Source of the DNA: Chloroflexota bacterium
GTDB lineage: Bacteria > Chloroflexota > Chloroflexia > Chloroflexales > Roseiflexaceae
NCBI GenBank assembly: GCA_046300655.1
Contig: JBKCLM010000070.1
Coordinates: 17,741-81,740, forward strand
Direction: 5' to 3'
Length of the DNA: 64,000 bases
Each line of letters opens with the position of its first letter. Position 1 is the first letter of the stretch. Positions 4,287 to 57,053 of the stretch are shown piece after piece. A program made the position numbers and the translations under genes. The notes under the pieces were generated by a model, which had not been told where the DNA came from, did no database searches, and was given only the letters and a program-made list of their open reading frames with translations.

Positions 4287-4340
4287 TCAGGCCAACAATG
4301 CAACACTGTGGTTGTATTGAATTGACATAAAAGGTGAACT

Positions 4341-5534: not shown

Positions 5535-6325
5535 GTAAAGCAGAACGGATGCGGTTAGATCTCTTGCTGGTGGCGCGTGGTCTCGCTGAGTCACGCGCCA
5601 AAGCGCAGGCCTTGATCATGGCCGGTGTGGTGCGCGTCAATGGCCAGGTCTGCCGCAAGGCCGGTGAGAATTTGCTCCTCACGGCTGAACTTGCCGTCGA
5701 GGAGAGCCTGCCGTACGTAAGCCGTGGTGGCTACAAGTTAGCGCATGCCCTCGACGAATTCGGCATTGATGTCACCGGTATTACTGCTATTGACGTGGGT
5801 GCCTCAACTGGCGGATTCACCGATGTGCTGTTGCAACGCGGTGCCGCCGCCGTGTATGCGGTTGATGTGGGCTACGGCATCCTCGATTATGCGATTCGCA
5901 GTAACCCCAAAGTGATTGTGCTTGAGCGCACCAATATCCGCTATTTGACTGAGTTGCCTGCTGCTGATCATGCGACGTTGCCACCAACTGCGGCCGTGAT
6001 TGATGTGGCGTTTATTTCGCTTAAGTTGGTCCTGCCTGCCGTCAAAGCGTTGCTCGCTCCCGATGGCTGGATTATCGGCCTGATTAAGCCGCAATTTGAG
6101 GCTGGGGTTGACCAAGTCGGCAAAGGTGGCGTCGTGCGCGATACTGCCGTGCGGGCTCAGACGATTCGTGAGGTATTGCGCTCGGCCGCGGATTTGGGGT
6201 ATGGGTGCGCTGGGCTGGCGCGATCGCCCATTCAAGGACCAGCCGGCAACGTCGAGTTCTTGGCGTGGCTCAAGCGTGGCGTTGACGCCGATATCGAAAA
6301 ACGCATCGCCACCGTTGAATTGTGA
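5531..6325 (+). CDS. tlyA: TlyA-family rRNA 2'-O-methyltransferase (S4 domain plus FtsJ-like methyltransferase)
   Basis: [31 protein letters not shown] (S4-like) followed by [17 protein letters not shown] (SAM-binding). The GTG start overlaps the upstream stop as GTGA. ATG 5549 is an alternative start. Confidence 0.85.
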
Positions 6326-6424
6326 TGTGGTGGATGGTTTGATTGGTTCCATTCGTGGTAGATTTGACATGTAAAAAACGCACAACCCCGTGTGTCATTG
6401 ATGTGTCTGCGAAGGGATGAATAT

Positions 6425-7615: not shown

Positions 7616-7974
7616 ACATTCTGGAATTGTAGAGCGCGTCCTCGTGTGCTCGAATCGGCATTACATCTAACCGGTGATTGTATGTAGTGTGGGACCAACT
7701 ACAAATTGAAAGATGCTCCCTCCAAGGTGTGAGGTGTTTTCGTTGGTTCCATCAAATTCTATGATCGGTGCGCCATAGATGCTGTGTTTACGATTTACTC
7801 GCACCTCAAGTCCAAAAACACCGTAGATGATTCGATTATTGCATTCAAACAGTGCGTGAAAATACACGTTTCATAAAAAATTCCCGTTGAGATGCGTAGT
7901 GTAATACTCTAGGATAAGCATGGGATATCAGACATCGTTGTTTGAACAGAATCCATCTTGTAAGGAGTGTGACT

Positions 7975-36578: not shown

Positions 36579-38012
36579 TTAGTAGAGGAGTTGATCTGCA
36601 GGAATGTCCTGCAATCCACTCCACGGTGAGCGAATTTCACCGTTTGCGAGGCGGCGATCAATGCGTCGGATAACCATGTAGCCAACCATGAATACTAAAA
36701 ACAACCCGGCTACGATATAGACACCGACATACCCCAGTACGACGCTTTGTGTGGTAGCCTGAATATAATCACGGGCGATACCGCCTCCAATCGTGCCGAA
36801 TCCTTGTGCAAGCGCCTGTACAACGCCCCACATCCCCAAAAACAAACCAGTATGGGCGTTGTCGGCAAGCTGCATGACAGTTGCAATACTCCCGACAATA
36901 AATAATCCGCGCCCCATACCAATGATTGAGACGCCAAGCTGGAACAACCAAGCCCCACCCCAGAACCCACTTAACGACACCACGCCAAAACCGACAATCC
37001 CGGCCATGCCACCCGCAATCAGGAGTTTGCCACTCGCGTGACCGCGCCATAACCACCACCCAGCGATGATAATTGCGATAATCATCGAGACACCCCAGAT
37101 GGCCGTCAAAAATGTTGTGGCAGTGACGCTCATGCCGAGTACCTCGCCACCGTATGGCTCAAGCAGAATGTCGTGTGTGCCGAATCCTAAGGTCGCCACG
37201 AAAAAGATGAGAAACATGCCGCGGAGGGCTGAGCTTTGCCAGAGGGTGCGGATTGATGTACCCAACGACTGGCGCGCCTGGCGACTCACCTCGGCAACTA
37301 AAGTCCCGTCAGGGCGCATTTTCTCTTGATTGAATAACGCCAAAAACGTGCAGATCAAAAAGACGACCGCACTACCTTGCATCACCCGAATCAGGTTGGA
37401 ATGCGTGTAGTTGGTCAGTAAAAGACCGACCACTAACGAGCCGACAACCGTGCCAATCACCAGCATTAACCATAGGATGGCTAATGTTTTGCCCCGCTCT
37501 CCATCGCTGGTAATATCGCTGACCAATGCCAAATAACTCGTCTCGACAATATTGACTCCAATGCCGTATACGAGAAAGATTGCAATGCTAAATACGTAGA
37601 CCATCCAACCTTGGAGATTGCTCTCTGGACTGAATAGAATGAGCGAAAACGGCGCAGTTGCTAACCCGCCATACGTCAACATGGCGCCGAGTACTAAATA
37701 CGGCGTGCGCCAACGACCTTCCATCCGCTTTTGGTCTGATATATGTCCAACTACTGTGCGGATGGGTGAGACAAAGTAGTGAATCGACATCAGCGCTGCC
37801 ACAAATCCTGCCGAGATAGCAAGCTCGTGGATCAGGACGCGATTCAGTGTGCCCGTAATCGGTGCAAGTGATACACCCATGCCGAACTGAAACAACCCGA
37901 GTCGCAACACACGGAGCCACCATGGTGCATCAGGATGGCGCATAATCCATGCACGTAATTCCAACCAGCGGGCCTGGATACTACGTGGCAGAAAGGTGCG
38001 TTCACTCGCCAT
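36579..38012 (-). CDS. PucC/LhaA/Bch2-family MFS protein (BCD family)
   Basis: LRLGLFQFGMGVSLAPITGTLNRVLIHELAI...PIRTVVGHISD matches the PUCC-family N-terminal signature. 12-TM layout. Start moved to ATG 38012, with GAGGAG 5 nt upstream. Confidence 0.8.
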   Translation of the reverse strand: MASERTFLPRSIQARWLELRAWIMRHPDAPWWLRVLRLGLFQFGMGVSLAPITGTLNRVLIHELAISAGFVAALMSIHYFVSPIRTVVGHISDQKRMEGRWRTPYLVLGAMLTYGGLATAPFSLILFSPESNLQGWMVYVFSIAIFLVYGIGVNIVETSYLALVSDITSDGERGKTLAILWLMLVIGTVVGSLVVGLLLTNYTHSNLIRVMQGSAVVFLICTFLALFNQEKMRPDGTLVAEVSRQARQSLGTSIRTLWQSSALRGMFLIFFVATLGFGTHDILLEPYGGEVLGMSVTATTFLTAIWGVSMIIAIIIAGWWLWRGHASGKLLIAGGMAGIVGFGVVSLSGFWGGAWLFQLGVSIIGMGRGLFIVGSIATVMQLADNAHTGLFLGMWGVVQALAQGFGTIGGGIARDYIQATTQSVVLGYVGVYIVAGLFLVFMVGYMVIRRIDRRLANGEIRSPWSGLQDIPADQLLY

Positions 38013-38189
38013 GTTGACTCCTCGATGTCTCGTGTCGATATCCTTCGCTTTGGGGCAATCATAGCACATCACTTTTTTGAAATACTATTAATTTGCTGCG
38101 GTATATATTTTGTGTAATTGATGTATATGAAATGTGTGAGTTAGCGAATATTGCATAAGCAATATCCAGAGTCCGGGTAGAATACCTAT

Positions 38190-43565: not shown

Positions 43566-43637
43566 ATTCCCTACATAACTACCAATGAACGGCGGGACGG
43601 GTGATAATCACTCGCCCCGCTGTTGTGCGTATGGCGG

Positions 43638-43652
43638 TATAATTTAGCCATG
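43638..43652 (+). promoter_or_regulatory. TATAAT box 6 nt upstream of the helicase ATG (candidate leaderless transcript)
   Basis: TATAAT is at 43638-43643 and the ATG at 43650. No SD sequence lies between them and no convincing -35 element is present. Confidence 0.3.
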
Positions 43653-45830
43653 CATATACCAGATCCGACCGTCGAACAACTTGCCGTTATCGCCCACCCG
43701 CTCCGCCAGCATGCCCGCGTCTTGGCAGTGGCTGGCTCCGGCAAAACTACCACCATCGTGTTGCGCGTCGCCTACCTCATCAAAGAGCTGGGCGTTGATC
43801 CACGCGGCATTCGCGTCTTTGCCTATAATGCCCTCGCCCGTAACGAACTCAAAGAGCGGATTAGCCTGCTGTTGCCCGACAAAGCCGACCAACCGCGCGT
43901 CGACACGTTCCATTCATTTGCCTTTCGCTGGATAAAGCAAGCCATCAGTGAGCAAGTGATCCCCGAACCGCTTGAATGGTGGCTCGACGACGAAAGCGAT
44001 AAATCGCGCCTGTTGATGCACCGTTCGATTCAATCACTCGTGCAAGAAGGCATCATCGAGGATGGTGCGGTCGATGTCGATGCGGTATCGGCTGCCATCA
44101 CCCTGTGGAAGGCTGCCCTCATTCCAGCAGGCAGCGAACGCGCCGCTCATGCGAGTAGCAGCGACATCCCACTCGTCTATGCCCGCTACGAGGAGATGCG
44201 GCAGTCGTTGCAGGCCGTCGGGTTTGATGATTTTGTCGGCATGATGCTCGATTTGGCCGACAATCATCCGCAATTCTGGCGCAAAGTCGTTGGTGGCTTG
44301 CGCGTCTTGATTGTCGATGAGTACCAAGATGTGAATTTTGGCCAGCAGTTACTCGTGCAAAAAATCGCCGCCACGAATGTCGATGTGATGGTAGTCGGTG
44401 ACGACGATCAGACCATTTATGAGTGGCGTGGTGCCCGCCCCGATTATCTCATTCAGCGCTTCGGCCAAGGATTAACACAGCGTAATATGGTCGATTACCC
44501 GTTGACCGTCAGCTTTCGCTTTGGCCCGCTGCTGGCCCAAGTCGCCCACAACGTGATTGTGCGCAATAGCGTGCGCTTTGCCAAAGACTTGGTCTCAGCG
44601 AGTTTGCAACGGGCTACGGCTGTGCAAATCATTGAGGATCGCACTAGCCAAGCTGGCATCATCGACCAAGAGGTCAGTGAGCAGTTGCAGACCTGGCTGA
44701 GCGATCATCCGGCCTCGTCGGTAGTGGTACTCGGGCGCACATTAGGGCAACTTCAGGCGTTTGAGATGGCCTGTTTGCTCAACGAGATTCCCTATCGCGT
44801 GTTGGGTCGCGGTCCGTTTTATCAACGTCGCGAGCATATGATTTTGGCCGATTATATGCATCTGGTGAACCACATTGATGCGCCGCTCGATGAAGCACTC
44901 GGGCAGGTGTTTATACGGATTGCCAATACGCCGATGCGTGGTTTGCAACGCGATTTCCTAAAGCAACAATTGCGCCAAGCGGTGCACCAGGAGCAGACGC
45001 TCCGGCAGGTGCTGGTTGAGTTGAGCACCAGCGAATCGTCGTCAGCCCAGGTACGTGCCCGCCTTGACGACATGCTCGCCATGTTCGAGCAGTTGACACG
45101 CATGCTTCGTGACGAGGCAAGTGCCTACGAAGTGTTGACCTGGTTGACGCAACAGTTACGTCTTGACGAGCATTTTGTGCGGGCCTACGGCCGCGGCGAG
45201 GCGGCCGCCGAGCGTTCAATTGCTGTGAGGCATTTGATTGCCGTCGTCGAGTATTTGTCAGTGCCGGCAGCACAGTTTGTCACGTGGCTCCGCGAGTTCG
45301 ATCATACCGCCGGCAAAGAAGAGCCTGAGCAAGTGTTGTTGACCACCGTCTACCGCGCCAAGGGCCTTGAGTACGACCATGTGCTTATTCCAGCAGCGCT
45401 TGAGGGCTACATGCCGGCCTACGGCAATTCGCCCGAGGTGTATGACCGCAGCGACCCCACCGCCGTGCCGGCCGGTTCGGATGCCATCGAGGAGGAGCGC
45501 CGGCTCTTTTATGTGGCCATCACCCGCGCCAAAGAGTTGCTGACGATTGGCGTGCCATTACCGAAGCCTGGCCTGGGTCGCGATGCTTTACCTACCGCCA
45601 CGCCATCGCGCTTTGTCAAAGAGATGAAACTCGAGCCGACCGAGCAGATTCTGCAGAGTGCCACCGACGACGCTGATGCGCTGACCGAATCGTTACTAGA
45701 ACACGGAGCTAGCAAGGGACTGCTGACGCACCTCGCACGCTATGTAGCCGATGATCCGCAACTCCTCAAGGTGGTGCAGTCATTCAAGGGTGAAATTTGG
45801 CCGATGCGCCCGTTGAAGTTAAAAAAATAA
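43650..45830 (+). CDS. UvrD/Rep/PcrA-family superfamily-1 DNA helicase
   Basis: VLAVAGSGKTTT (Walker A), LIVDEYQDVN (motif II), VGDDDQTIYEWRGA (motif III), TVYRAKGLEYDHV, LFYVAITRAK. Confidence 0.9.
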   Translation: MHIPDPTVEQLAVIAHPLRQHARVLAVAGSGKTTTIVLRVAYLIKELGVDPRGIRVFAYNALARNELKERISLLLPDKADQPRVDTFHSFAFRWIKQAISEQVIPEPLEWWLDDESDKSRLLMHRSIQSLVQEGIIEDGAVDVDAVSAAITLWKAALIPAGSERAAHASSSDIPLVYARYEEMRQSLQAVGFDDFVGMMLDLADNHPQFWRKVVGGLRVLIVDEYQDVNFGQQLLVQKIAATNVDVMVVGDDDQTIYEWRGARPDYLIQRFGQGLTQRNMVDYPLTVSFRFGPLLAQVAHNVIVRNSVRFAKDLVSASLQRATAVQIIEDRTSQAGIIDQEVSEQLQTWLSDHPASSVVVLGRTLGQLQAFEMACLLNEIPYRVLGRGPFYQRREHMILADYMHLVNHIDAPLDEALGQVFIRIANTPMRGLQRDFLKQQLRQAVHQEQTLRQVLVELSTSESSSAQVRARLDDMLAMFEQLTRMLRDEASAYEVLTWLTQQLRLDEHFVRAYGRGEAAAERSIAVRHLIAVVEYLSVPAAQFVTWLREFDHTAGKEEPEQVLLTTVYRAKGLEYDHVLIPAALEGYMPAYGNSPEVYDRSDPTAVPAGSDAIEEERRLFYVAITRAKELLTIGVPLPKPGLGRDALPTATPSRFVKEMKLEPTEQILQSATDDADALTESLLEHGASKGLLTHLARYVADDPQLLKVVQSFKGEIWPMRPLKLKK

Positions 45831-45841
45831 ATCGTCAATGC

Positions 45842-45881
45842 CCCCCTGTAGAGCCGTAGCATGCTACGGCTCTACAGGGGG
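45842..45881. terminator. Perfect 40-bp palindrome between convergent helicase genes (bidirectional terminator candidate)
   Basis: CCCCCTGTAGAGCCGTAGCA (45842-45861) is the exact reverse complement of TGCTACGGCTCTACAGGGGG (45862-45881). An A/T-rich tract lies on the addA side. Confidence 0.6.
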
Positions 45882-45888
45882 TAATGAT

Positions 45889-48800
45889 TTACCAACCAAA
45901 CGGTTCGAAGGCGGGGATTTCTTGTGGCGGCACGAGCGTGCGCCCTTCGGCGCATATCGCCCGGGCAGGGCAGTGGCGACAGTAGTGGTGCTCTGGACGA
46001 GCTGGGTAATCCCCCTCAACCAAATGGGTGGCTGCCGTTGCCACACGTTGTTGCGTTTGACGCATCAACAGTTCATCATTGGGGATTGGAATCATGGTGC
46101 CTGTACGTGCATGATAGACCGCAATTGCTGGGATAGATGCGTGTTGTTGTTGGCGCATCCATGCTTGGGCATAGAGGCGTAACTGGTCGCCGTGTCGCTC
46201 AACGATGCCGTCCATGCTCTCGTCCGTTTTGTAGTCGACAATCATGCCGTTCCATTGCCGATCAATCACGCCCGTCATTTCGACGAGCGCCCGTGGTGTC
46301 TCGATGCGCCAGCGTATTCGTTGCTCGACCTCGTGCAGTCGCGGTGGGTGTTGGCCGAGCGGTGAGGCAAGGTAGGTCGTCAGCATCGATATCAGTAGAT
46401 GCATCGTATCTGGATTGACGGGTTTGCCGTAGCGTTGTACCGCCAACTGGCACAGGTGCTGCGCATCGGCATGTGGGTGATGGGCATGTATCTCTGTGGC
46501 AAAGTGGAAGAGCGATCCAATCGCCCGGGCTGACTTGCCGACCGCCTGTGGGTCATCCGCGATTGGTAGTTCGATTGGCTCTTGGGCCAGACTTTGCCAT
46601 GCATCAAGATGCGAAGGCAGTGTGTAATGCCCGGCTGGCGCGTCTGTCCAATGTGGTGTGCTCACTTGTTCCTCAACTTCGAGCAAATCATCAAGCCCGC
46701 TCCGACGCTGGAACCGATAGCGTTTGGGGCATTGCATGAGTTCGTGCAATCCGGACGGTGAGAGCGAGATGATTTGCTTGCTGGCGATGCGCTGTATGTG
46801 TGGCCGCTGGTTAGCGATTGTCGGTTCATCAGGGAACGGTTCATTGATTACCGTCACATCAACTGGTGTCGTTGTAACACCATGAATGGGTGTGTCGTTG
46901 AGGGAATCGTACATCTTGCGGAACAGGCTGTCTCGTTTTTTGCTGTTCTCAGTCGCACTGACCATCAAAAAGCGTTTGGCACGGGTGAGTGCCACATACC
47001 ATAATGCAACAACTTCGTTGTATTTTTGTCGTTCAAGCTCGAGGGATGCAGTGCGTTGTGTACTGTCTTCGCTGCTCGGATCAACCAAAACGCCGCTTTG
47101 GAATGTCATTTGTTCGTCGGATCGCACATCAAATGCATGGGCATCCGGCACAAATACCGCCATAAACTCCAGTCCTTTGGCCGCATGCACGGTCATGATT
47201 TGTACCGCATTTGCGTTGGTTTTTAGTTCGGGCGATGCGCTATCAGGCTCATGCCGAATGCGTTCGAGTAACTCACGAATCAATTCGTGACTTGATCCAG
47301 TCTGCATGGCACGGCAGTCGTTGATGAGTTTGGTGAGCATGCGCTGGCCGTAGGCACCGTCGCGTTGCCATAAGCCAAATTGTTCGATTGTCGTGGCAAA
47401 CCATTCAGCTGGGGGGAGTTGCCATTGTAGGTGTTGTGCGTTGATAAGCGTTGTTACAAACTGTTGGATGTGTGGGTGTAATTCGCCGCTCTTCTGGAGC
47501 AAACGCCATAGGCTGGTATCGCGTTCTTGTTGGCGAATTGCGCGCAAGCCTATTTCGTCACAGGTGCGCGTCGCCGAAAGCAGCGCCCGTGTAAGTGATT
47601 GTTCGTTGGCCGGGTCGTAACAGGCGATCAACAGGTGAATCGCATCGAGAATCAGCGGTCGATGATAGAATGGATCGCTTTTGCCGCGATCAAACGGAAT
47701 TCCTGCACGTTCCATGGCGTTGGCGTAGATATCAAGGTGCGTGCGCTGGCGAAGTAACATGGCCATGTCGCCATAGTCAATACCGTGCGTCGTGTGGAGC
47801 TCACGCATGCGAGATGCAACGGCGTCAGCCTCGTTGTTACGATCGCCCATCAACCAGAATCGCACGCAGTCATCAGGCGCTGAGGGCGTTCCAGGTGGTG
47901 GATGGAGTTGTGCAGTTGCATCGAACTCTACTGGGGTATTGAACCGGTATGTGGCCAGACTGCGATTCGCCACGGCGAGAATTGGTGCCAGTGAACGCCG
48001 ATTTTCGGTCAAATTTACTGTGACCTGGCTCTGTTCTTTCATGTGCACGATATTTTGCACGTTTGCTTGCCGCCAGACGTAAATGGCCTGTCGTGGGTCG
48101 CCAACGACTGTGCGGGCAGCGGGGCCGTGTGGACGTGGAGTGATGCTTTCGAGGAGGTTGGCCTGCGCGCTACTCGTGTCTTGGTACTCATCAACCATGA
48201 TGTAGCGCACTTGCTCGAAGAGTTCGGGGAAGCGCTCCTTAATCACAGGTACGATTTGAATCAAATCATCGAGATCGAGTTGACCACGGAGACTCAAATC
48301 GTGGGCGCGGGCTGCGAAGTTCCACGCCAATAACTGGCCAAACAGTGTATGTTTGTCACTGACTGACTGTGTCTTTTTGATGGCATTGATAAGCTTTTCG
48401 GATGTGAGCCCCAGGCCTTTGGCGTCAGCAATCATCTGATTGAGTGTGGCAAATATTTTCTCGTCATTCCAGTCGATTTGGTCGATTAACGTATGCAGAT
48501 GGGCAATCGCCTCTTGCCAACCATGATCAAGGAAGCGCTCCCAACAGGCTTCGCCAATGGTATCGCGTTCGCGTTCCTCACAAAACGGTTCATCCGGGTT
48601 CAGGTTAAGGGCAATGCTCCGTTGCAGGGCAAGGCGTGCGGCAAACGCATGAAACGTCGAAATATGCGCTTCGGCCATGTCAATCCGACTAAACGGCAAC
48701 TGTTCGTTGATGACGGTGTACATGATGCGCGCCCGCATCTCGGTGGCGGCTTTTTCGGTAAAGGTCAACACCACAATGTTGCGTGGATGGAGCGCTGGGT

Positions 48801-48942
48801 TGTGTGTAAGCAACTTGACATAGCGTCGTGCTAAGGTTTCGGTTTTGCCAGTGCCAGCCCCAGCGATGATGGCGAGTGTGGCGTCCGGCGCGGCGTTTAG
48901 TGCTTGTTGTTGCCCTATATTTGGAATAAATTGCTGCGTCAT
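45889..48942 (-). CDS. addA: AddA/RecB-type helicase-nuclease (UvrD-like motor plus C-terminal PD-(D/E)xK nuclease with Cys cluster)
   Basis: IIAGAGTGKT, IMVDEYQDT, VGDPRQAIYVWR, TVHAAKGLEF, YVALTRAK. Nuclease GVIDRQ...IVDYKTD. Cys pattern QCPKRY...CRHCPARAIC. Start moved to ATG 48942, with AAGGAA upstream. Confidence 0.85.
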   Translation of the reverse strand: MTQQFIPNIGQQQALNAAPDATLAIIAGAGTGKTETLARRYVKLLTHNPALHPRNIVVLTFTEKAATEMRARIMYTVINEQLPFSRIDMAEAHISTFHAFAARLALQRSIALNLNPDEPFCEERERDTIGEACWERFLDHGWQEAIAHLHTLIDQIDWNDEKIFATLNQMIADAKGLGLTSEKLINAIKKTQSVSDKHTLFGQLLAWNFAARAHDLSLRGQLDLDDLIQIVPVIKERFPELFEQVRYIMVDEYQDTSSAQANLLESITPRPHGPAARTVVGDPRQAIYVWRQANVQNIVHMKEQSQVTVNLTENRRSLAPILAVANRSLATYRFNTPVEFDATAQLHPPPGTPSAPDDCVRFWLMGDRNNEADAVASRMRELHTTHGIDYGDMAMLLRQRTHLDIYANAMERAGIPFDRGKSDPFYHRPLILDAIHLLIACYDPANEQSLTRALLSATRTCDEIGLRAIRQQERDTSLWRLLQKSGELHPHIQQFVTTLINAQHLQWQLPPAEWFATTIEQFGLWQRDGAYGQRMLTKLINDCRAMQTGSSHELIRELLERIRHEPDSASPELKTNANAVQIMTVHAAKGLEFMAVFVPDAHAFDVRSDEQMTFQSGVLVDPSSEDSTQRTASLELERQKYNEVVALWYVALTRAKRFLMVSATENSKKRDSLFRKMYDSLNDTPIHGVTTTPVDVTVINEPFPDEPTIANQRPHIQRIASKQIISLSPSGLHELMQCPKRYRFQRRSGLDDLLEVEEQVSTPHWTDAPAGHYTLPSHLDAWQSLAQEPIELPIADDPQAVGKSARAIGSLFHFATEIHAHHPHADAQHLCQLAVQRYGKPVNPDTMHLLISMLTTYLASPLGQHPPRLHEVEQRIRWRIETPRALVEMTGVIDRQWNGMIVDYKTDESMDGIVERHGDQLRLYAQAWMRQQQHASIPAIAVYHARTGTMIPIPNDELLMRQTQQRVATAATHLVEGDYPARPEHHYCRHCPARAICAEGRTLVPPQEIPAFEPFGW

Positions 48943-48955
48943 TATCGTTTCCTTG

Positions 48956-51826
48956 TTATTGTGCATCATCACAGATATGGGTAAATGGGCAATACATACA
49001 TTGTCGTGATGGTTTCGCGGGATACGGTGCATGACGCATTTGGTGCATAATCCTGAGCAGATCCTGCTGAATAACGCCGTGCAAGTCATTGATGGATACG
49101 TTTAGGCCGATGTGTGAGTTCCCCGATTTGACGAATTCCGTGGCTTTGTCAACAACGTATACACTACGGAGCTGACTATTTTTTTCACCTTGCCCCAAGT
49201 AAAATAGCGTGAGCGTGTCAGCTGCAGGCGTGAGTTGCCACCCTGGTTGGTTGAGACCGAGTAAATAAATCGGAATTTGGAAGTTCGAGAGCTCCTTGCC
49301 CTCTTTTTTCATAAAGCCATTGAGCAAATCAGAGTATGCTTTGGGCTTGCCACTCTTGTAGTCAATAATCTCGTAGCGTACATATGACCCCATATGCACC
49401 ATGTCGATGCGGTCGATTCGCCCGACAATGCGCATGCCCTCGATGCGAAAATCAAGTTGGTGTTCGAGCAGGATCGGGCGCCGATTGGGTATTTTGGTGT
49501 AGAGCTCTTGCTCGTACTGCCACCAGCGCTGTAACATGCCGTGGATGCGCAACCAGTTGCTCCGCAGACGTAGACCGGTGTCAAAGCGTTGTTGCCAGGC
49601 TTGTGTTGCGCGGTAGGTGCCACCGCCAGGGAGTGCAACTTCATGGCCGTGCCAAGCGGCGTGCAACGCGCTGTGGAGCCGCTGCGGCATGACGGCCAAT
49701 CGAGCGCGGAACGCCTCAAGCGATTCACTGCGCAAGTCGACGTTCTCAGTTGCACCTGTGCCTAAAACGGCACACAACACCTCGTGAGCCAGTGCGCCCA
49801 TATCGAGACTACGCTCATCGACCTCACTCTCATCATCATGCCCAAGCTGAATCACTTTCTCGTAGTAGTAGCGCCGTGGACAGGCGAGGTATGTGCTGAT
49901 TTGACTTGCCGAGAACGAGTTATTTGTCAACAGCTGAATCGGTTGGACAACCTCACGCATATGTTGGTGCGCCTGTGGCAATGGTAACGTCGGTACACAT
50001 GCAATCGACGGGTGATGCACTTGCACGTGACCGTCACGATCAAATGTCGCGAGCCCATCGAGGAGCTGCGCCAGGTATGGCGTCGCCAGCTGGGATTGAC
50101 CGTTTGCCCCATACTGGGCAAAACTGAGCACGACGTGTTGGGCATGACTAGCAATTAGATTCATAAAGCGGCGTTGCTCGCGGTGTTGCCATGCATTTGG
50201 CTCTGTCAGTGCCGGCTGTGCAGGCCGATAATCGGGGTGGAATACGGCGCATAGTGCTGATTCTGCAATCAACTGGAAGCCTTGCGTTGCCCGTGGGGCG
50301 ACATGCTCGCTTAATCCCATCACAATCACACAATCGTGAGCACTGTGTGCACCGGTCGTTGAGATCGTGAGTGGAATCGTGGTGCGATAGAGTTCACGCA
50401 TGGGCGCTGGTAATGTATCAACGCTGAGCAGTAGTTGATCTCGTTGGTGAACGGTGAGTTGATGCTCCTGCGCTAATTGATCGATCTCGTCGATGCGCTC
50501 CAGCCAGGTGCGAGTCTCGCGGAGCCAGCTATCACGTACATCGACCGGGTGATTTGTGGACTCCCAGGCCCACATAATTGCCCCACTTTGATTGAGTAGT
50601 TGACGAATTTGCGGTGCAAGTGCTGCATCTGGCTGTATCGCACCAAACCAACCATGAATGTGTTGTGTGTGCGGGTGATGCGGATCCGCACTATACTTGC
50701 GGGCGACGTTGGCCGGTACTCCCACAAATGGCAGCATCATGGTTGTCTGGATGAGGCGTTGCTGGTCAACCGGGTCTGGACTCTCGAGCCAGCGCAATGC
50801 AATCCGTGCGAGATTGATAATCGGGTTGATGTAATCAGGTGGTGCAAGGGGCGGTAAGTCAATGCCCTGTTGTACTAACGCGGCACGAACATGCGGCACC
50901 AACGATTCGTCGGCACAGACAATCTGCACGCTCCGCCCTTTTTGTAGGAGTTGGTGACAATGATTCGCGACGGCGTGACACTCATCGACAATGGTGGCAG
51001 CGCCAGCGTGCCAGACCTCTTGATTTGTGAGCCGTGTGCCAATCAACCCAATGGTGATTGGCGCATTCATTGCCGAATCCGTCATGCGCATCACGAGTTG
51101 GCTGCCAGTACTCGTAGGCGCTGCCCATGTGGTCGGTGTCGCGTGCTGTGTCAGCCATGTATGGAGGATCTGTTGCTCAGGTAGGTGTGCAGTACCACTT
51201 ACCCATGCACCGAGCCACATGGCGTAGCGTTGTGCATAACGTGATAGCACGGCGAGTTGGGCAGGTTGGGCGTGTTGGAGCTCACACACCGCGAGGTATT
51301 CATACTCGAGCGGTGGTAGTTCGTGCGCAAGTACATGCAAGGCTACATCGTCGTACCCGATGACATCGTGTTGATTAAGAAGGTTGACGTAATGATTGTA
51401 AATTGCGCCTATTTCGTGCGTTGTATCCAGCTCCACATCGACGTTGTGCCACTGTCGCCGATGACTCGAAATCCAACTCAGGAGTTGGCCAACCTCACGC
51501 ACTGCACCACGATTACTGCCATAGGTATGCCATAATGCGCCATTGGCGCGTTGCCACGCTTGTTGGACTAGCATGGCGCGACTCGTGGCATTTAATACTT
51601 TGCGTGGGCGTTGATATTGTAGTTGACGAATCAAAAATGACTGGAGCGTCATGACGCTGATGTTGGCGTGCTGTCGATCGGTTAGCATCGTCTTGAGCGC
51701 CTGCGCATGCGTTGCATTTGCGCTGATAATTACGGTGCGGCGTCCTTGAGACTTGGCGACCACGAGGCTGATAAAGTCGGGATGAAATAGTGCTTGTGGC
51801 GAATCGTAGCAACATGTTTCAATCAT
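48956..51826 (-). CDS. addB: AddB-type subunit (degenerate helicase-like N-terminus plus C-terminal iron-staple PD-(D/E)xK nuclease)
   Basis: No intact Walker A. C-terminal LACPRRYYYEK, GRIDRID...IIDYKSGK and CMYCPFTHIC. The gene ends 13 nt before addA. Confidence 0.75.
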   Translation of the reverse strand: MIETCCYDSPQALFHPDFISLVVAKSQGRRTVIISANATHAQALKTMLTDRQHANISVMTLQSFLIRQLQYQRPRKVLNATSRAMLVQQAWQRANGALWHTYGSNRGAVREVGQLLSWISSHRRQWHNVDVELDTTHEIGAIYNHYVNLLNQHDVIGYDDVALHVLAHELPPLEYEYLAVCELQHAQPAQLAVLSRYAQRYAMWLGAWVSGTAHLPEQQILHTWLTQHATPTTWAAPTSTGSQLVMRMTDSAMNAPITIGLIGTRLTNQEVWHAGAATIVDECHAVANHCHQLLQKGRSVQIVCADESLVPHVRAALVQQGIDLPPLAPPDYINPIINLARIALRWLESPDPVDQQRLIQTTMMLPFVGVPANVARKYSADPHHPHTQHIHGWFGAIQPDAALAPQIRQLLNQSGAIMWAWESTNHPVDVRDSWLRETRTWLERIDEIDQLAQEHQLTVHQRDQLLLSVDTLPAPMRELYRTTIPLTISTTGAHSAHDCVIVMGLSEHVAPRATQGFQLIAESALCAVFHPDYRPAQPALTEPNAWQHREQRRFMNLIASHAQHVVLSFAQYGANGQSQLATPYLAQLLDGLATFDRDGHVQVHHPSIACVPTLPLPQAHQHMREVVQPIQLLTNNSFSASQISTYLACPRRYYYEKVIQLGHDDESEVDERSLDMGALAHEVLCAVLGTGATENVDLRSESLEAFRARLAVMPQRLHSALHAAWHGHEVALPGGGTYRATQAWQQRFDTGLRLRSNWLRIHGMLQRWWQYEQELYTKIPNRRPILLEHQLDFRIEGMRIVGRIDRIDMVHMGSYVRYEIIDYKSGKPKAYSDLLNGFMKKEGKELSNFQIPIYLLGLNQPGWQLTPAADTLTLFYLGQGEKNSQLRSVYVVDKATEFVKSGNSHIGLNVSINDLHGVIQQDLLRIMHQMRHAPYPAKPSRQCMYCPFTHICDDAQ

Positions 51827-51987
51827 TGGCGGTATACCTTGCTATTTAATACGTAATATTGCAATAATATCATAAAAATGCATATATGTGGGTGTATTTA
51901 TATGAAATTAATGATATAATTCAATACATGCTAACGTAATTACGGCACATATACCGGGAATCAGATTGCGAGATAGGCATAATAAGT

Positions 51988-52009
51988 GTTTTCGTCAAAA
52001 ATGACGAAA
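51988..52009. promoter_or_regulatory. Perfect 22-bp palindrome in the addB / PARG-like-A intergenic region (operator or leader hairpin)
   Basis: TTTTCGTCA-AAAA-TGACGAAAA. It lies downstream of an extended -10 (TG-A-TATAAT; TG at 51912-51913, -10 at 51915-51920) and of TAACGTAAT (51932-51940). Confidence 0.4.
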
Positions 52010-52106
52010 AGCAATCATCAGATGAGTGGTATAACAAATATATCAAAGATTGCGTGAAATGAGCTTCGCGGATTTGGCAGTATTTCAAAGTGAGAGAGGC
52101 CAAGCA

Positions 52107-52934
52107 ATGTTTGTTCCCCCATTACATGTTGCACCATTGAGTGGTGATGCGTTTGATTTACCAGCCAAGGTCATCCATAATCTGGTCAGTTCAACACGAG
52201 CAATAGTTGATCGTGGCTGGTATGTGGCGCCGACGCAACAGACAGTCGTGTTCAAGCCGGCACAAGATGCGGCACGACGCCTGACGACGCGAGTATCGCA
52301 GTTAGCCAAGCCGACGAATCGTCGACGGTATGATGCGACGAGTCTGATGGTGCATAATCATACACCATTAACGGTGGGGCGTGCGTGGTTCCAGCGCGGC
52401 TATCGTGTAGCTGTTGTGAATCCAACGCCATTGCGCTTATGCCATCCAAGTTTAATGAGCAGTATTGCATCACAAAACATGTTGTTGCGATCAGGCGGTT
52501 TGGCTGAGTGTATCATCGACAGTGGTTATTACGAATTAGGGAGTACCAGTGAGCCAATTGTCAGCCCACAACTACCGCTTTTTCGTACCTATGACGGCGA
52601 TTTGCTCGATCAACCATGGGGTTGTGATGTGATTACGTTGGCCAGTGATGCGATTGATGCCGTGACATCGCCGATGCATCATGATTTTGTGCTTGATTGG
52701 TTGCACACGGTCGTGCAAGCGGTGCAACGTGTTGGTGCAAATGTGTTGGTCTTCTCGGTTGGAAACGATGTAGATGCGCCGTTAGTTGTGCGGCTGCTAT
52801 ATGAAGCATTTATGCGGGTCAAATTGCACGCTTTAGCTGCAATCAACATCGTCGTAGCCGATCAAAGTTACAATCAACGCACTTGGACCCCGTTTCAAAA
52901 ACGGTTTGATGGTGTCATGATTAGTAACAGTTAA
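52107..52934 (+). CDS. TIGR02452/DUF2263 (bacterial PARG-like macrodomain) homologue A, strongly degenerate
   Basis: Paralogue of 53926-54795, sharing blocks VAPL/VAPI, RRYDAT, GYRVA and PLFR/PFFRD..GDLL..PW. The GGG...QEE loop is replaced (NPTPLRLCHPSLMSSIASQNML) and the LGAWGCG block has decayed to VLVFSVGND. Start moved to ATG 52107, with GAGAGG upstream. Confidence 0.5.
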   Translation: MFVPPLHVAPLSGDAFDLPAKVIHNLVSSTRAIVDRGWYVAPTQQTVVFKPAQDAARRLTTRVSQLAKPTNRRRYDATSLMVHNHTPLTVGRAWFQRGYRVAVVNPTPLRLCHPSLMSSIASQNMLLRSGGLAECIIDSGYYELGSTSEPIVSPQLPLFRTYDGDLLDQPWGCDVITLASDAIDAVTSPMHHDFVLDWLHTVVQAVQRVGANVLVFSVGNDVDAPLVVRLLYEAFMRVKLHALAAINIVVADQSYNQRTWTPFQKRFDGVMISNS

Positions 52935-53812
52935 TTCGTACGGAGTAGCGTTTCAACGCTCATGGCATGGAGCGCAACAAGCGTTTCGTGGTCGAGTTTA
53001 CCGCCCTCATACCCACCAGCAAGACACGCCACAACAGCCAGCGAATGGGATTCTGCCCATTCGCTGACGTATTGTTCGCGGGCGTGAACAATCTCAGTGG
53101 TAATGCCGTGTAATCCACCGATTCGACAATCTTCGTGGACATCCATCCCTGCATTGTAAATCAACAAATCGCTTGGTTTGATGTGTGATTCGACATGTGC
53201 GAGCAGGTTGTGTAGGGTTGCCATGTACTGATCTGCGCTTGTCACACTGCGGCGTACATGTGGAGCACGGGCGACATAACTGTCATAACCACTCGTATGA
53301 ATGTCAAGGTGGAACAGTCTGTCCCAATCGGCACACATGCTCATTGTGCCACCGCCACAGTGTGCATCAGCATCCACGATGATAACGTTGCGATTAGGAT
53401 AATCTGCCAGGATCTCACCTGCGGCAATGACCAACCCATTCAACGTACAAAAACCTGCTCCTTGTGTTGCGCGTGCATGATGGAACCCGGCACTTAGCGC
53501 ATACGCGCGCCCGTGTAGGCAGGCGTACTGCGCAGCATCACGCATTGCGCCGTTTTGGGCGGCCACCGAACGCCACATCATCTCGTCCCACATAAATCCC
53601 TGTGATTCCGCAATATCAATAGGATCACCAGTGATGATTGCATCTACATAGGTGCCATCGTGGTAACGTGCAGCGATGTCTGGCGTTATGGGAGCTGGTT
53701 GTGTTATCTGCCACCCACGGTTAACTAGGTACGCGGCAATGTCTGCCCCTTTGCGGGTTGTGTCGAATGCGTGTGCCGTTTTGATGGTATCTGGATGATA
53801 AAATACTGCCAT
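52931..53812 (-). CDS. Histone-deacetylase-fold (arginase/deacetylase superfamily) Zn amidohydrolase, about 293 aa
   Basis: SAGFHHA (His-His dyad), GFCTLN, IVDADAHCGGGT, NAGMDVHEDC and LAGGYEGG (catalytic Tyr). Start moved to ATG 53812; the track start is TTG. Its stop overlaps the convergent gene's stop within TTAA. Confidence 0.7.
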   Translation of the reverse strand: MAVFYHPDTIKTAHAFDTTRKGADIAAYLVNRGWQITQPAPITPDIAARYHDGTYVDAIITGDPIDIAESQGFMWDEMMWRSVAAQNGAMRDAAQYACLHGRAYALSAGFHHARATQGAGFCTLNGLVIAAGEILADYPNRNVIIVDADAHCGGGTMSMCADWDRLFHLDIHTSGYDSYVARAPHVRRSVTSADQYMATLHNLLAHVESHIKPSDLLIYNAGMDVHEDCRIGGLHGITTEIVHAREQYVSEWAESHSLAVVACLAGGYEGGKLDHETLVALHAMSVETLLRTN

Positions 53813-53863
53813 TTTTGAAAATCTTTCTAAAAACCACAAATGTGGACATATAAATAATTATAA

Positions 53864-53884
53864 TAACGTATAACGTATAACGTA
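53864..53884. repeat. Three perfect tandem TAACGTA heptamers at overlapping divergent -10 boxes
   Basis: TAACGTA occurs at 53864, 53871 and 53878. The plus-strand TATAAT (53859-53864) abuts the heptamers. The minus-strand TATAAT (53862-53857) overlaps that box. Confidence 0.6.
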
Positions 53885-53925
53885 TGCATGTATTGTATCA
53901 CGATTGTTGATGGCAAGGGAGCGAG

Positions 53926-54795
53926 ATGCCAAGTAATTTAGCACTCACAGTTGCGCCAATCACCCCTGATGAGTTTGTTATAGCACCTGCGGTGATGCGT
54001 AATATTCGTCATGCAACCCAAACAATCTTAGCACGTGGTACCTATACGAATCCAGATGGTGTAGATATATCGATTGATGCATTACAGGCATCTGCACGTA
54101 CCAAGCAGCGGAGATATGATGCAACCCAACCGATTGATGTGACGGGTGGGCGATATGGACACTCCCAACTATACGTGTATAACCAGACGGCGTTGACTAT
54201 TGCCCGGGAGCGTGTTCGTCAAGGATATCGTGTGGCGATGTTACATTTTGTGAATCCTCCGTACCTGCAAAGTGCGAATTCTGTGCGCCCCTCACAAGCA
54301 GATAGTTTGATGTGGTCGTCGAGCTTGGCGTATTGTTTACAGGATGTCGAATGGCAAGGTGTGTCGCCGTTTTATGATGATACGGTGGTCGTGACGCCGC
54401 AGATGCCGTTTTTTCGAGATCATGGTGGTGATTTGTTGTCAGAACCATGGCGAAGTAGCGTAGTGCATGCTGTGGCGATTGATGCACATGCTGTCCGCAC
54501 ACAAATGCCGGAACACACCGCTGAGGTACCGCAGCTGATGGTACAACGCGCAATACGTGTATTACAAGCTGCTGCGACTACACGTGCGAATGTGCTTGTG
54601 CTCGGGGCATGGGGGTGTGGATGTGCCGGGCATGATGCAGCTGTGATGGCTGCCATATGGCACGTAGCAATTGCACAGGCAAAAGTACGGATATTTGGGA
54701 TTATCGATTTTGCGGTGGCTGACATTAAACCATCGCGTCCGACGTTTACATCATTTTATCAACAGCTCCATCAGCAATATATTGCACTCACATAG
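53926..54795 (+). CDS. TIGR02452/DUF2263 (bacterial PARG-like macrodomain) homologue C with altered catalytic loop
   Basis: The block order matches the family from memory: ...RGTY.NPDG, VAMLHFVNP, SQADSLMWSSSLAYCL, PFFRDHGGDLL, VLVLGAWGCGCAGHD, FAVAD. The expected NPGGGF...AQEES loop reads NPPYLQSANSVRPSQADS instead. Confidence 0.65.
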   Translation: MPSNLALTVAPITPDEFVIAPAVMRNIRHATQTILARGTYTNPDGVDISIDALQASARTKQRRYDATQPIDVTGGRYGHSQLYVYNQTALTIARERVRQGYRVAMLHFVNPPYLQSANSVRPSQADSLMWSSSLAYCLQDVEWQGVSPFYDDTVVVTPQMPFFRDHGGDLLSEPWRSSVVHAVAIDAHAVRTQMPEHTAEVPQLMVQRAIRVLQAAATTRANVLVLGAWGCGCAGHDAAVMAAIWHVAIAQAKVRIFGIIDFAVADIKPSRPTFTSFYQQLHQQYIALT

Positions 54796-54871
54796 TGGTA
54801 GAGACGATTCACTCTGGTGTATAGTATAAATGTCTACAAGTAGTGACTTTGTACGTACATAGGCAGTAGTG

Positions 54872-55630
54872 ATGGATAGTCAAAGTGATCTTCGTCATTC
54901 GGTAGATCAACTCCTGCACGTCTTTCAGCAGGGGTATGAACCGTTTGTGATAACTGCAATTCGTAGCATTCATGGCACTAGTTGGCTCGATGTCATCAAG
55001 AATACGCCAGATCTGCGAGTGAATACGCAACAACAGCCGTTGCGTCTTGATGCGACAGCGATTGTGCGCATCATGCTTCATCATTGGGATAGTACCTTCT
55101 CGCGCGTGTTGGTTGCCACCGACCGGAGCATGCTGTCCGAAGTTCGATTGATGCGGAATAAATGGGCGCATCAGGGGAATATAACTGTTGATGATGTCGA
55201 TCGACTCGCCGATAACGTCACGCGCTTACTTGTGTCGATTAATGCGCCAAACGCTCACCAAGCCAAACAACTGCGTGAGGACTGGCGCATGCGTCGGTAT
55301 CGCAAACCGCGTACGGTGCCAGTATGGGCGATTGGTGTAATGGTGGGTGTATTGGTGTTGGGGGTCATTGGTTGGTGGTTTTGGGAGGGCAGTGCTGTAC
55401 CTAATAACGAAAATCGTAGCCAACCAGCGCAGGTGACGCGTACACCGGCTGCAACTGCGAACGACAGCGCATTCCCTTGTCAACCAGGACAAATCAAAGC
55501 AAACCCACGTTCAATGATTTATCATCTGCCAGATGGTGCTTATTATGCAACCACCAAGAACAGCGACGTGCAATGTTTTGAGTCGGTTGAGGCGGTTGAG
55601 GCTGCTGGGTTTCGCAAATCGAAACGCTAG
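54872..55630 (+). CDS. Swt1-like HEPN domain, single TM segment and C-terminal sunset domain
   Basis: LDATAIVRIMLHHWDSTFSRVL...EVRLMRNKWAHQ carries the RxxxxH HEPN motif. TM: VPVWAIGVMVGVLVLGVIGWWFW. C-terminus: CQPGQIKANPRSMIYHLPDGAYYATTKNSDVQCFESVEAVEAAGFRKSKR. GTG 54869 is an alternative start. Confidence 0.65.
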   Translation: MDSQSDLRHSVDQLLHVFQQGYEPFVITAIRSIHGTSWLDVIKNTPDLRVNTQQQPLRLDATAIVRIMLHHWDSTFSRVLVATDRSMLSEVRLMRNKWAHQGNITVDDVDRLADNVTRLLVSINAPNAHQAKQLREDWRMRRYRKPRTVPVWAIGVMVGVLVLGVIGWWFWEGSAVPNNENRSQPAQVTRTPAATANDSAFPCQPGQIKANPRSMIYHLPDGAYYATTKNSDVQCFESVEAVEAAGFRKSKR

Positions 55631-55640
55631 CGTGCATTTA

Positions 55641-55677
55641 GGCCAATCAAACATCATTTAGAGGTGTTTGATTGGCC
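55641..55677. terminator. 13-bp perfect-stem hairpin between the convergent HEPN gene and the small minus-strand gene
   Basis: GGCCAATCAAACA (55641-55653) pairs perfectly with TGTTTGATTGGCC (55665-55677) around an 11-nt loop. The right arm overlaps the last codons of the minus-strand gene. Confidence 0.5.
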
Positions 55678-55927
55678 GGCGGCGACCTTCGTGGCGACCA
55701 TGTTTCATGTAGTGGTCGAACCCTGATGCAAATCGTCCTTGGCGTACATATCCGCGTACATCTTGGTTTTCGGCTAAATAGCGTTGTTCATCAAAATCAG
55801 GTGGTGGTTGAAGCCACGCTGATGGTAATTGTGCCAAGATGTCATCATATTGTGTGACAGGATTGCTTTTGGTTGCAGATATAACACGCAATACGCGCTT
55901 CACGAGTTGAGTGAACTGTGTCAGCAT
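55658..55927 (-). CDS. Small protein (89 aa) carrying one copy of the FDxxxYLxxNxDV...G...HY..(H)G..EGR motif seen in polysaccharide-biosynthesis proteins
   Basis: FDEQRYLAENQDVRGYVRQGRFASGFDHYMKHGRHEGRR. GGAGGG lies 4 nt upstream of ATG 55927; the track start is TTG. Confidence 0.5.
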   Translation of the reverse strand: MLTQFTQLVKRVLRVISATKSNPVTQYDDILAQLPSAWLQPPPDFDEQRYLAENQDVRGYVRQGRFASGFDHYMKHGRHEGRRRPIKHL

Positions 55928-56023
55928 GATGCCCTCCAAGCCCAAACCAATAATTCTAGGTGTTTTGTGATAACTCTACGTACTACGAACTATAGCACAC
56001 ATTTGTGATTTGTGCAGATGCAT

Positions 56024-56053
56024 TTGACGTTGCCAAAGTTTGTGCGGTATGAT
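56024..56053 (+). promoter_or_regulatory. Candidate sigma70 promoter of the polysaccharide locus
   Basis: TTGACG (56024-56029), 18-nt spacer, TATGAT (56048-56053), about 110 nt upstream of ATG 56163. Confidence 0.35.
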
Positions 56054-56162
56054 TACCGTGAATTGCTCGGCAGATTCGTAAGATTTGTGTGCACAACATC
56101 ATCGTGTTTCCACGTGTTTTTTGGCTTTTTTATACATGTTGTGATTTGAGTTAGGGGCAGTT

Positions 56163-57053
56163 ATGACCGTCAATACTAACGTATACACGCCTGGTGTACT
56201 GTCACAACACGTGTTGTCGCTCACTGACAGATTTGCTGTTCTCCATAATCCGCTGGCGCATCAGATAGTGGTCGATATTGAGTCGAAGATTGCTTCACCA
56301 CAGACTGTCTTATCGTTTGATGTGTTTGATACGCTCTTATTACGCAATCATCGTGCAGAATTAACGCGGTTCTATGATGTTTCGGGATTGGTGGCGTCGT
56401 TATTGGCCCAACGCTATCAGGAGTCAATCCGCCCCGAGGATGTGCTCATGGCGCGTTTGATGGCCAATCGTCTGTCATACCGATTGTCGCCTACCCGTGA
56501 TGGGTGTCGTGAGGGTACGATTACTGATATCTATCGTCTGATTCTCGAGCAATTACGTGTGCCCGCCACAGAATCAACTATTCAGGCGTGTATTGAGATT
56601 GAGTTAGCGTACGAAGTAACACAGTTGACAGTCAATCTACCGTTACTTGCCATGACACAACACCATATTGCACGCGGTGGGCGAGCCATTTATGTGAGTG
56701 ATATGTATTTGGGTGTGGCACACATCAATCAACTGTTAACTCGTTTGGGAGTCGAGGTTTCGTTGTTTGCTGCCACATATTCGAGTGCTGACACGATTCT
56801 TTCGAAGCGCAGTGGCAAGATATGGCCATTGATTCTCAACGAGCTTGGTATCACCGCTGCGCAGATGTTGCACATTGGTGATTCGTTGGTGAGTGATTAT
56901 CAAAGCCCACGCACGCAGGGGATTCCGGCTGTTCATGTGCCGATTCCATTGCAGATGCGTCGTGACATTATGGCTGATCATGGTGCACTCGTTCACCAAC
57001 TCGAATCAATGCACCTGCCGATTCAGAGTTGGATGGCGCCACCGCACTGGTAA
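56163..57053 (+). CDS. HAD-like hydrolase (FDVFDTLLLR type) of a polysaccharide locus
   Basis: SFDVFDTLLLR (motif I), VSDMY, and HIGDSLVSDYQSP (motif IV-like). Confidence 0.6.
   Translation: MTVNTNVYTPGVLSQHVLSLTDRFAVLHNPLAHQIVVDIESKIASPQTVLSFDVFDTLLLRNHRAELTRFYDVSGLVASLLAQRYQESIRPEDVLMARLMANRLSYRLSPTRDGCREGTITDIYRLILEQLRVPATESTIQACIEIELAYEVTQLTVNLPLLAMTQHHIARGGRAIYVSDMYLGVAHINQLLTRLGVEVSLFAATYSSADTILSKRSGKIWPLILNELGITAAQMLHIGDSLVSDYQSPRTQGIPAVHVPIPLQMRRDIMADHGALVHQLESMHLPIQSWMAPPHW

Follow-up and report, generated by a model that had tools for sequence, protein, structure and literature searches.

What have two PARG-like proteins become once they lack the loop that marks PARG catalysis, and what ties them to the deacylase gene lying between them? 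The question is raised by a 64,000-nucleotide (nt) stretch of contig JBKCLM010000070.1 from a Chloroflexota bacterium (hereafter the window, meaning the whole 64-kb stretch that was analyzed). In this window, the genes for the two proteins, copies A and C, enclose a gene for an HDAC11-like deacylase, B, and are followed by a gene for a HEPN protein. The original prediction, made from the DNA letters, described both copies as catalytically altered or inactive macrodomain-like proteins. We found that both have the PARG fold, have lost the canonical GGG..QEE signature and are under purifying selection, and that the loss of the signature coincides exactly with linkage to the deacylase and HEPN genes, with a conserved palindrome in the spacer between the deacylase gene and C. 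We propose that A and C are selected PARG descendants without canonical PARG chemistry, residing in a lineage-specific module with a deacylase and an RNase, a reading to which we give an even chance of being correct. The four genes are arranged as follows.

52107-52934, plus strand: copy A, PARG-fold paralogue, 275 aa
52931-53839 as open reading frame (ORF), probable gene 52931-53812, minus strand: B, HDAC11-like Zn-dependent deacylase, 293 aa
53926-54795, plus strand: copy C, member of the TIGR02452/bacterial-type PARG family, 289 aa
54869-55630, plus strand: HEPN gene, starting 73 nt after C

The genes for A and B are convergent and their stop codons overlap by 4 nt (52931-52934), as they also do at loci L001 and L002 of related genomes. 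The ORF of A could extend to a TTG at 52050, and the ATG at 52107 ('MFVPPL') is the start in 14 orthologues. The start of B is probably the ATG at 53812, because the orthologues open with 'M(A/M)VFYHPD' and the upstream TTG falls within the conserved palindrome.

Fold and catalytic loop of copy C

Copy C scored 116.1 bits with TIGR02452 and 34.1 bits with PF10021, above the respective curated cut-offs of 50 and 23.5. Its AlphaFold2 (AF2) model showed a predicted local distance difference test (pLDDT) value of 91.5, and the sole weak stretch, residues 111-120 (~53), was the degenerate catalytic loop. A Foldseek search with this model returned the Thermomonospora curvata enzyme TcPARG (3sih; TM-score 0.79/0.83, E-value 6e-20) and DrPARG first, with ordinary macrodomains after them; structures of macrodomain readers were the next-best matches after the PARGs. 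The PARG-type macrodomain fold, including the N-terminal helical extension, was present in the models of both C and A. Copy C is a family member by hidden Markov model (HMM) score and by fold, and it lacks the enzyme signature.

The strings quoted in the original prediction are all present, namely NPPYLQSANSVRPSQADS and LGAWGCG in C and NPTPLRLCHPSLMSSIASQNML and VLVFSVGND in A. HMMER alignment to T. curvata PARG (3SIG) and MAFFT alignments placed the loops as claimed: neither copy has the canonical GGG...QEE loop, C keeps LGAWGCG, and A has lost it. In particular, the catalytic loop of C reads P111-PYLQSANSVRPS-Q124-A125-D126 (PPYLQSANSVRPS-QAD), and the positions aligned to GGG-X6-8-QEE are PPYLQSANSVRPSQAD. 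The HMMER alignment set 'PGGGFLSGAHAQEEGL' of TcPARG opposite 'PPYLQSA-NSVRPSQADSL' of C or, over a longer stretch, 'NFASAEHPGGGFLSGAHAQEEGL' opposite 'HFVNPPYLQSA-NSVRPSQADSL'. The MAFFT alignments (26, 27, 41 and 17 homologues) agreed, with Q124 of C on the Q of QEE and the SL..SS..L..C register continuing. The key residues of TcPARG are E114, E115 and F227 (PMC8120803); relative to this enzyme, C has lost GGG and carries A125 for E114, D126 for the catalytic E115 and A234 for F227. Neither GGG nor QEE was found anywhere else in A or C.

The diphosphate loop of C is retained (L226-GAWGCG-C233-A234), and G227-A-W-G-C-G232 is invariant in the C subfamily. Within the C clade, this loop is near-invariant with an entropy of 0.17 bits, and the former GGG loop reaches 1.78 bits versus a mean of 0.73, which places it within the top 4 of 278 entropy windows. 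DrPARG uses main-chain atoms of Gln110 and Gly224-Phe228 to hold the pyrophosphate and Glu111 to bind the distal ribose; its E112A variant is inactive, yet its dissociation constant for ADP-ribose is unchanged (PMC6445106). Copy C keeps the backbone glycines of the diphosphate loop, the Gln that contacts the pyrophosphate through its main chain (Gln124) and the 'ribose-cap' region IDFAVxD. It no longer has the GGG turn, the Phe packing against the distal ribose or the Glu-Glu pair, where one Asp is left. Because the diphosphate loop, Gln124 and the cap region are retained, C would most likely bind ADP-ribose or a similar nucleotide while leaving ribose-ribose bonds uncut, and could serve as a reader or sensor subunit.

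Replaced loops of copy A

Copy A fell below both cut-offs (TIGR02452 37.5 bits, PF10021 14.3 bits). Its AF2 model had a pLDDT of 88.3, and the top Foldseek match was again TcPARG (3sih; TM-score 0.73, E-value 1.5e-13), so that both models match TcPARG first and neither protein lies outside the macrodomain/PARG fold. The catalytic-loop region of A reads N105-PTPLRLCHPS...SQN, with PTPLRLCHPSLMSSIASQN at the aligned positions, and no acidic residue is aligned with the catalytic Glu. The diphosphate loop is also lost, V213-LVFSVGND standing in place of LGAWGCG. The replaced catalytic loop is itself conserved: A orthologues are 63-90% identical with the common start MFVPPL, the replaced GGG loop is near-invariant in the A clade (entropy 0.15 versus a protein mean of 0.60), and the LCHP motif is invariant in the two best-sampled A clades. 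An exhaustive HMMER search with an A profile against 1.84 billion representatives returned only 7 clusters at E <= 1e-30, among them two more A-like clades (P0191 and P0192), both with neither loop. A strong hairpin lies on the plus strand at 53039-53066 (11-bp stem, 7 GC pairs), ~100 nt past the A stop and within the 3' coding part of B; it may serve as a terminator of the A transcript.

The loops of C and A bear on an alternative that we regard as possible while leaning against it, namely that C (and perhaps A) has remained a hydrolase, its active site having been rebuilt. Copy C would act through Asp126, or through the Glu kept in the QEA/QEH lineages, on a non-PAR (poly(ADP-ribose)) substrate, and A through Cys112-His113 as a new catalytic dyad; candidate substrates are mono-ADP-ribosylated protein or RNA ends, O-acyl-ADP-ribose and ADP-ribose-1''-phosphate. 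At least one acidic residue is always kept at the QEE positions across C-type members, and the catalytic position is D or E without exception in the 16 closest C orthologues. This acidic residue would fit residual or altered catalysis as well as binding, and the invariance of the diphosphate loop in C and of LCHP in A points the same way. Moreover, canonical bacterial PARGs take several substrates, including 2'-OH RNA-ADP-ribose and phosphate-end ADP-ribose (PMC11833690). However, there is no longer a GGG turn to position the distal ribose, and what replaces this turn in C is hypervariable and modeled with low confidence, unlike an active-site loop. F227 is replaced by Ala in C, the Glu-to-Ala change that abolishes DrPARG activity is exactly the QEA carried by several linked lineages, and the more distant A-like clade P0191 ('QYHAD') does not share the Cys-His pair of A. 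The prediction of 'catalytically altered or inactive macrodomain-like' proteins was borne out by alignments, folds and conservation; given the acidic residue and the invariant diphosphate loop in C, this copy need not be inactive and may have a changed specificity.

Origin and selection

BLASTP aligned A and C over ~290 columns at 30% identity (E-value 9e-26), in agreement with their description as paralogues. A neighbour-joining tree recovered the A family as monophyletic (100/100) and joined it with the C subfamily and canonical P0028 in one clade (100/100). By this grouping, A is an in-clade duplicate, and the ancestor was canonical. The basal members are P0028, which is canonical, and P0023, which has GGG..QEA; neither contig shows a divergent HDAC gene upstream and the palindrome is absent from P0023, although these contigs of only 1.4-1.6 kb are too short to be informative. 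Copy A is a duplicate from within this Chloroflexia clade that has lost both ligand loops and carries the invariant PTPLRLCHPS motif instead. It would probably no longer bind a nucleotide diphosphate, and probably acts as a protein partner or a regulator, with a newly acquired conserved surface.

The ratio of nonsynonymous to synonymous substitution rates (dN/dS) was computed against the closest orthologous locus, L001, from a Roseiflexaceae metagenome-assembled genome (MAG). Copy A gave 0.064, B 0.065, copy C 0.114 and the HEPN gene 0.077, compared with 0.055 for AddB and 0.064 for a glycosyltransferase in the neighbourhood; all are approximate, with dS saturated (>1). On the same contigs, orthologue identity was higher for A than for C (86% versus 71%, and 69% versus 59%). 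These values speak to the idea that both genes are decaying toward pseudogenes, their motifs having been lost under relaxed selection. The loss of the canonical motifs and the hypervariable loop of C would fit such decay. However, every orthologue, from at least 8 lineages, has an intact reading frame, dN/dS (0.06-0.11) equals that of housekeeping neighbours, A exceeds C in conservation and has acquired invariant motifs, and both AF2 folds are confident. We therefore rejected decay, which is effectively refuted and barely credible. Judged by their substitution patterns, A and C are functional genes under purifying selection.

Conserved linkage to the deacylase and HEPN genes

The contexts of C-type genes were compared in eight lineages, all Chloroflexia (the window, L001, L002, L005, L008, L011, L013 and L014), across which the identity of C falls from 71% to ~40%. 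A divergent B-type deacylase gene precedes the C-type gene in 8/8 lineages, giving the order HDAC(-)/C(+)/HEPN(+), and a gene for a protein of HEPN(Swt1)-transmembrane-'sunset'/ArfC architecture follows 54-94 nt downstream in every context that reaches past the 3' end of C. The outer flanks vary, with A or a UvrD helicase gene upstream and ILVD, an ABC-2 transporter or a HAD/GT2 pair downstream. Copy C is universal in the module; A occurs in the window clade and the L008 clade, and is absent from L005, L011, L013 and L014.

The linked C-type proteins lack GGG, the catalytic Glu or both in all eight lineages. L005 and L008 keep GGG with QEE changed to QEA, L002 has lost GGG and keeps QEE, and both elements are altered in the window, L001, L011, L013 and L014. 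The catalytic position in the linked lineages is accordingly Asp (as in C), Ala, His, Gln or Glu (QAD, QAE, QEA, QEH and others). The other TIGR02452 loci came from a scan of 185,579 species genomes with patterns in the diphosphate loop and cap region, not in the catalytic loop; GGG..QEE is kept in 78/78 of them, and the neighbours described here were found in 0/78. Signature loss coincides exactly with HDAC/HEPN linkage. The original prediction had called a duplicated pair flanking a deacylase unusual; the pair is real, although it is not peculiar to this genome and is part of a conserved Chloroflexia module with a HEPN RNase gene and a palindrome.

A general association of PARG with HDAC was also considered and rejected. 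An HDAC gene lies near 1/78 canonical loci (L049, Hymenobacter), on the upstream side; this HDAC belongs to another subfamily, and the sister species L016 does not have it.

A palindrome in the divergent B/C promoter region

The spacer between B and C carries a 12-bp palindrome, and a related site precedes A.

53834-53845, no strand: palindrome CCACAAATGTGG in the divergent B/C promoter region, putative operator
53863-53883, no strand: three tandem ATAACGT repeats, between the palindrome and the C start
51880-51891, no strand: palindrome-related site GCATATATGTGG, 216 nt upstream of A

An alignment of 7 orthologous B/C spacers shows no variation in the palindrome, CCACA-WA-TGTGG, which occurs once in the 64-kb window. 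It was found at one site each in L001-L013, always in the B-C spacer (L001 7900-7911, L002 7883-7894, L005 7913-7924, L008 7193-7204, L011 1742-1753 and L013 5920-5931). L014 carries the variant CCACAATTGTGG at 2172-2183, and none of 84 other loci has the palindrome (0/84). Judged by this conservation, the palindrome is probably the operator of a regulator, and it is the strongest argument for regarding the genes as a unit, not mere neighbours. The orthologous spacers are also ACGTA-rich, like the ATAACGT repeats of the window. The site upstream of A is two mismatches from the palindrome and is conserved in three genomes, the window, L001 (GCATATATGTGG) and L002 (CCATATATGTGG); on its own, it is weak evidence of regulation.

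A further inverted repeat, TTTTCGTCA-N4-TGACGAAAA, lies at 51989-52010, ~100 nt upstream of A in the divergent region between AddB and A. Both L001 and L002 conserve this repeat. It resembles a minus-strand terminator, by which it was flagged, and could be a regulatory hairpin or a second operator. SOS regulation was rejected, as the sole GAAC-N4-GTTC box in the window, at 28785, lies away from the cluster and such boxes are no more frequent than expected by chance.

The linkage and the palindrome together bear on the possibility that only synteny has been inherited, A and C being independent, lineage-specific descendants of PARG that are functionally unconnected to the deacylase and the HEPN protein. 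The linked loci are all Chloroflexia with AddAB/UvrD nearby in most of them, as general synteny conservation would have it; A, B and C lie on different strands; and no HDAC-PARG domain fusion was found among 586 HDAC homologues or 52 PARG homologues. On the other side, the flanks outside the B-C-HEPN core change and the core persists despite saturated dS, an invariant palindrome marks the shared B/C promoter region with a related site upstream of A, and the loss of the PARG signature goes exactly with the linkage. We consider inherited synteny alone a doubtful explanation.

The deacylase and the HEPN protein

The deacylase B matched PF00850 (6e-32). Its H120, H121, D156, D158, H160, D233 and G275-G276-Y277 are invariant in 10 sequences, so that the His-His dyad, the Asp-His-Asp zinc ligands and the catalytic Tyr of GGY (Y277) are all present. 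As evident from its sequence, B looks like an active HDAC11-like, class IV or 'cluster 5' deacylase; the claim that the flanked deacylase is apparently active thus agrees with the invariance of H120, H121, D158, H160, D233 and Y277. The nearest solved structure is 9gkv (full-length alignment, 105 bits), which we infer to be HdaH of V. cholerae. The cluster 5b HdaH is a lysine de-decanoylase, and the paper describing it cites entry 9gkv (PMC11532494).

The HEPN protein comprises an N-terminal Swt1-like HEPN domain, a single transmembrane helix, a Pro/Thr-rich linker that varies in length and, at its C terminus, a 'sunset'/ArfC-like domain. It scored 80.7 bits against PF18731 (cut-off 27.5; 1.3e-22) and 4e-13 against NF051437. 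The Rx4H motif R96-N-(K/R)-W-A-H101 is invariant in 7 orthologues (R-N-K-W-A-H in the window), and the sunset/ArfC-like domain carries two invariant Cys. By these sequence features, the protein looks like an active, membrane-anchored RNase. No MNT/nucleotidyltransferase domain was found next to the HEPN gene, whose upstream neighbour is the PARG-like C, and the arrangement is thus not that of a HEPN-MNT toxin-antitoxin pair. Nothing on the sunset domain was found in the literature searched.

A candidate signaling module

The reading that we favor, of A and C as selected PARG descendants in a module with a deacylase and an RNase, would give the order [A] - HDAC11-like deacylase - C - membrane HEPN RNase, expressed from a divergent promoter with the conserved palindrome. 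Ligand sensing by C (and A) would then be coupled to a deacylation step and to the membrane-anchored RNase. We infer such a coupling of the four proteins, physical or functional, together with its trigger and the direction of signaling. In its most specific form, a PARG-derived reader C (of ADP-ribose or of ADP-ribosylated RNA or protein) and a ligand-blind A would control an HDAC11-like lysine deacylase and a HEPN RNase as an undescribed bacterial signaling module, a version that we hold to be unlikely. If it were true, the module would tie the sensing of ADP-ribose to protein deacylation and to controlled RNA cleavage, perhaps as part of a DNA/RNA-damage response, as suggested by the constant AddAB/UvrD neighbourhood.

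Several observations weigh against the proposal of a dedicated module without PARG chemistry. In addition to the conserved acidic residue of C and the approximate dN/dS values described above, all linked loci come from one bacterial class in which AddAB nearby is conserved as well, and linkage by descent is not fully separable from functional linkage. Scans of 51700-56200 for sigma-70 promoters and intrinsic terminators gave counts equal to those of shuffled sequence. Furthermore, A, B, C and the HEPN protein had no match in PADLOC-DB v2 at E <= 0.01.

Genomic surroundings

Directly upstream of the cluster lies a block of helicase and nuclease genes.

43623-51826: UvrD-type helicase (plus strand), AddA-like helicase-nuclease (minus strand) and AddB-like PD-(D/E)XK protein (minus strand)

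In most lineages, UvrD, AddA and AddB genes lie close to the cluster, and the position of copy A is taken by the UvrD gene in L005. The AddA ORF as called overlaps AddB by 134 nt, so the true AddA start is probably further downstream. Matches of AddA and AddB to GajB and Cas4 models were set aside as generic helicase/nuclease domains only. The region is housekeeping-like (MnmE, PucC, UvrD and AddAB); because of this, and because the four proteins have no PADLOC match, we rejected a known defence system and do not call the cluster one. Rfam and tRNA scans of the whole window found nothing.

Downstream of the HEPN gene, a small ORF at 55658-55945 (minus strand, 95 aa) has no Pfam match; its counterpart in L001 and L002 is a called protein of 89-90 aa between the HEPN gene and the HAD-like/GT2 genes. 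A gene of the PucC family, a bacteriochlorophyll-related family of the major facilitator superfamily, lies at 36579-38072 (minus strand). This gene, together with protein matches to Roseiflexaceae/Chloroflexia MAGs, indicates that the host is a phototrophic filamentous member of the Chloroflexota.

Comparison with known systems

We compared the four proteins with their closest known counterparts, first the bacterial-type PARGs (TIGR02452/PF10021/former DUF2263; 3SIG and DrPARG 5ZDB). Upon structural comparison, the fold was the same, including the N-terminal helical extension (TM-score 0.7-0.83), and the lengths were comparable (277 aa for TcPARG and ~253 aa for DrPARG versus 275 aa for A and 289 aa for C). 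In common with the PARGs, C has the LGAWGCG loop, the PxxPxFR(D)xxGxLL block, a conserved Cys that follows the catalytic helix, and the FAVxD region of the cap. In contrast, GGG-X6-8-QEE is missing from both A and C, and A also lacks the diphosphate loop.

The gene context differs as well, with an HDAC and a HEPN RNase for C and Ro60/RtcB for canonical PARGs of Hymenobacter. In L049 (2349-9435) and L016 (~4077-9557), the canonical GGG..QEE PARG gene lies between genes for Ro60/TROVE (Rsr) and the RtcB RNA ligase. These surroundings look like an RNA-repair neighbourhood and, by analogy, echo the ligase-PARG-PNKP operon of D. radiodurans, whose PARG has been reported with ligase and PNKP-like genes (PMC11833690).

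Among HDAC11-like or cluster 5 deacylases, B is typical in having the S-x-G-(F/Y)-H-H and GGY motifs and all catalytic and Zn residues. Its homologues elsewhere are set apart by context: three contexts of ~45%-identical homologues (Actinomycetota and metagenomic contigs), from other phyla, contained no PARG/macrodomain or HEPN neighbours, unlike that of B. A general tie of this HDAC subfamily to macrodomains was rejected on these contexts.

Membrane-tethered HEPN proteins of the Abi2/Swt1 clade have been proposed as stimulus-dependent RNases by Anantharaman et al. 2013 (PMC3710099). The HEPN protein of the window resembles them in its Rx4H HEPN domain, predicted to be cytoplasmic, and its single transmembrane tether; unlike them, it has a C-terminal sunset/ArfC-like domain, and its gene is coupled to those of a pseudo-PARG and an HDAC. 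The Swt1 and Macro-domain passages of that article describe no comparable neighbourhood.

Neither a signature-less bacterial PARG subfamily nor its linkage to HDAC and HEPN RNase genes was found described in the literature searched. To our knowledge, bacterial-type PARGs have so far been discussed only as hydrolases, in PAR turnover in Deinococcus and in the reversal of RNA ADP-ribosylation as toxin immunity. A conserved subfamily without the signature would be the first sign that bacteria have put the PARG scaffold to use as a module that is non-catalytic or re-specified. With four genes and one putative operator, the cluster would be a compact and testable system for the ligand of the pseudo-PARG and for the in vivo role of bacterial HDAC11-like deacylases.

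The functional analogy that we favor for C is with non-catalytic macrodomain readers. In macroH2A1.1, PARP9 and PARP14, the hydrolytic residues are lost and the phosphate-binding glycine loop is kept, as in C. These readers are MacroD/macroH2A-type domains within eukaryotic multidomain proteins, whereas the proteins described here are stand-alone bacterial proteins on a PARG-type scaffold. The recruitment would have taken place at precisely those loci where the PARG scaffold became tied to a deacylase and an RNase with a putative operator in common, in parallel with the macrodomain readers of eukaryotes.

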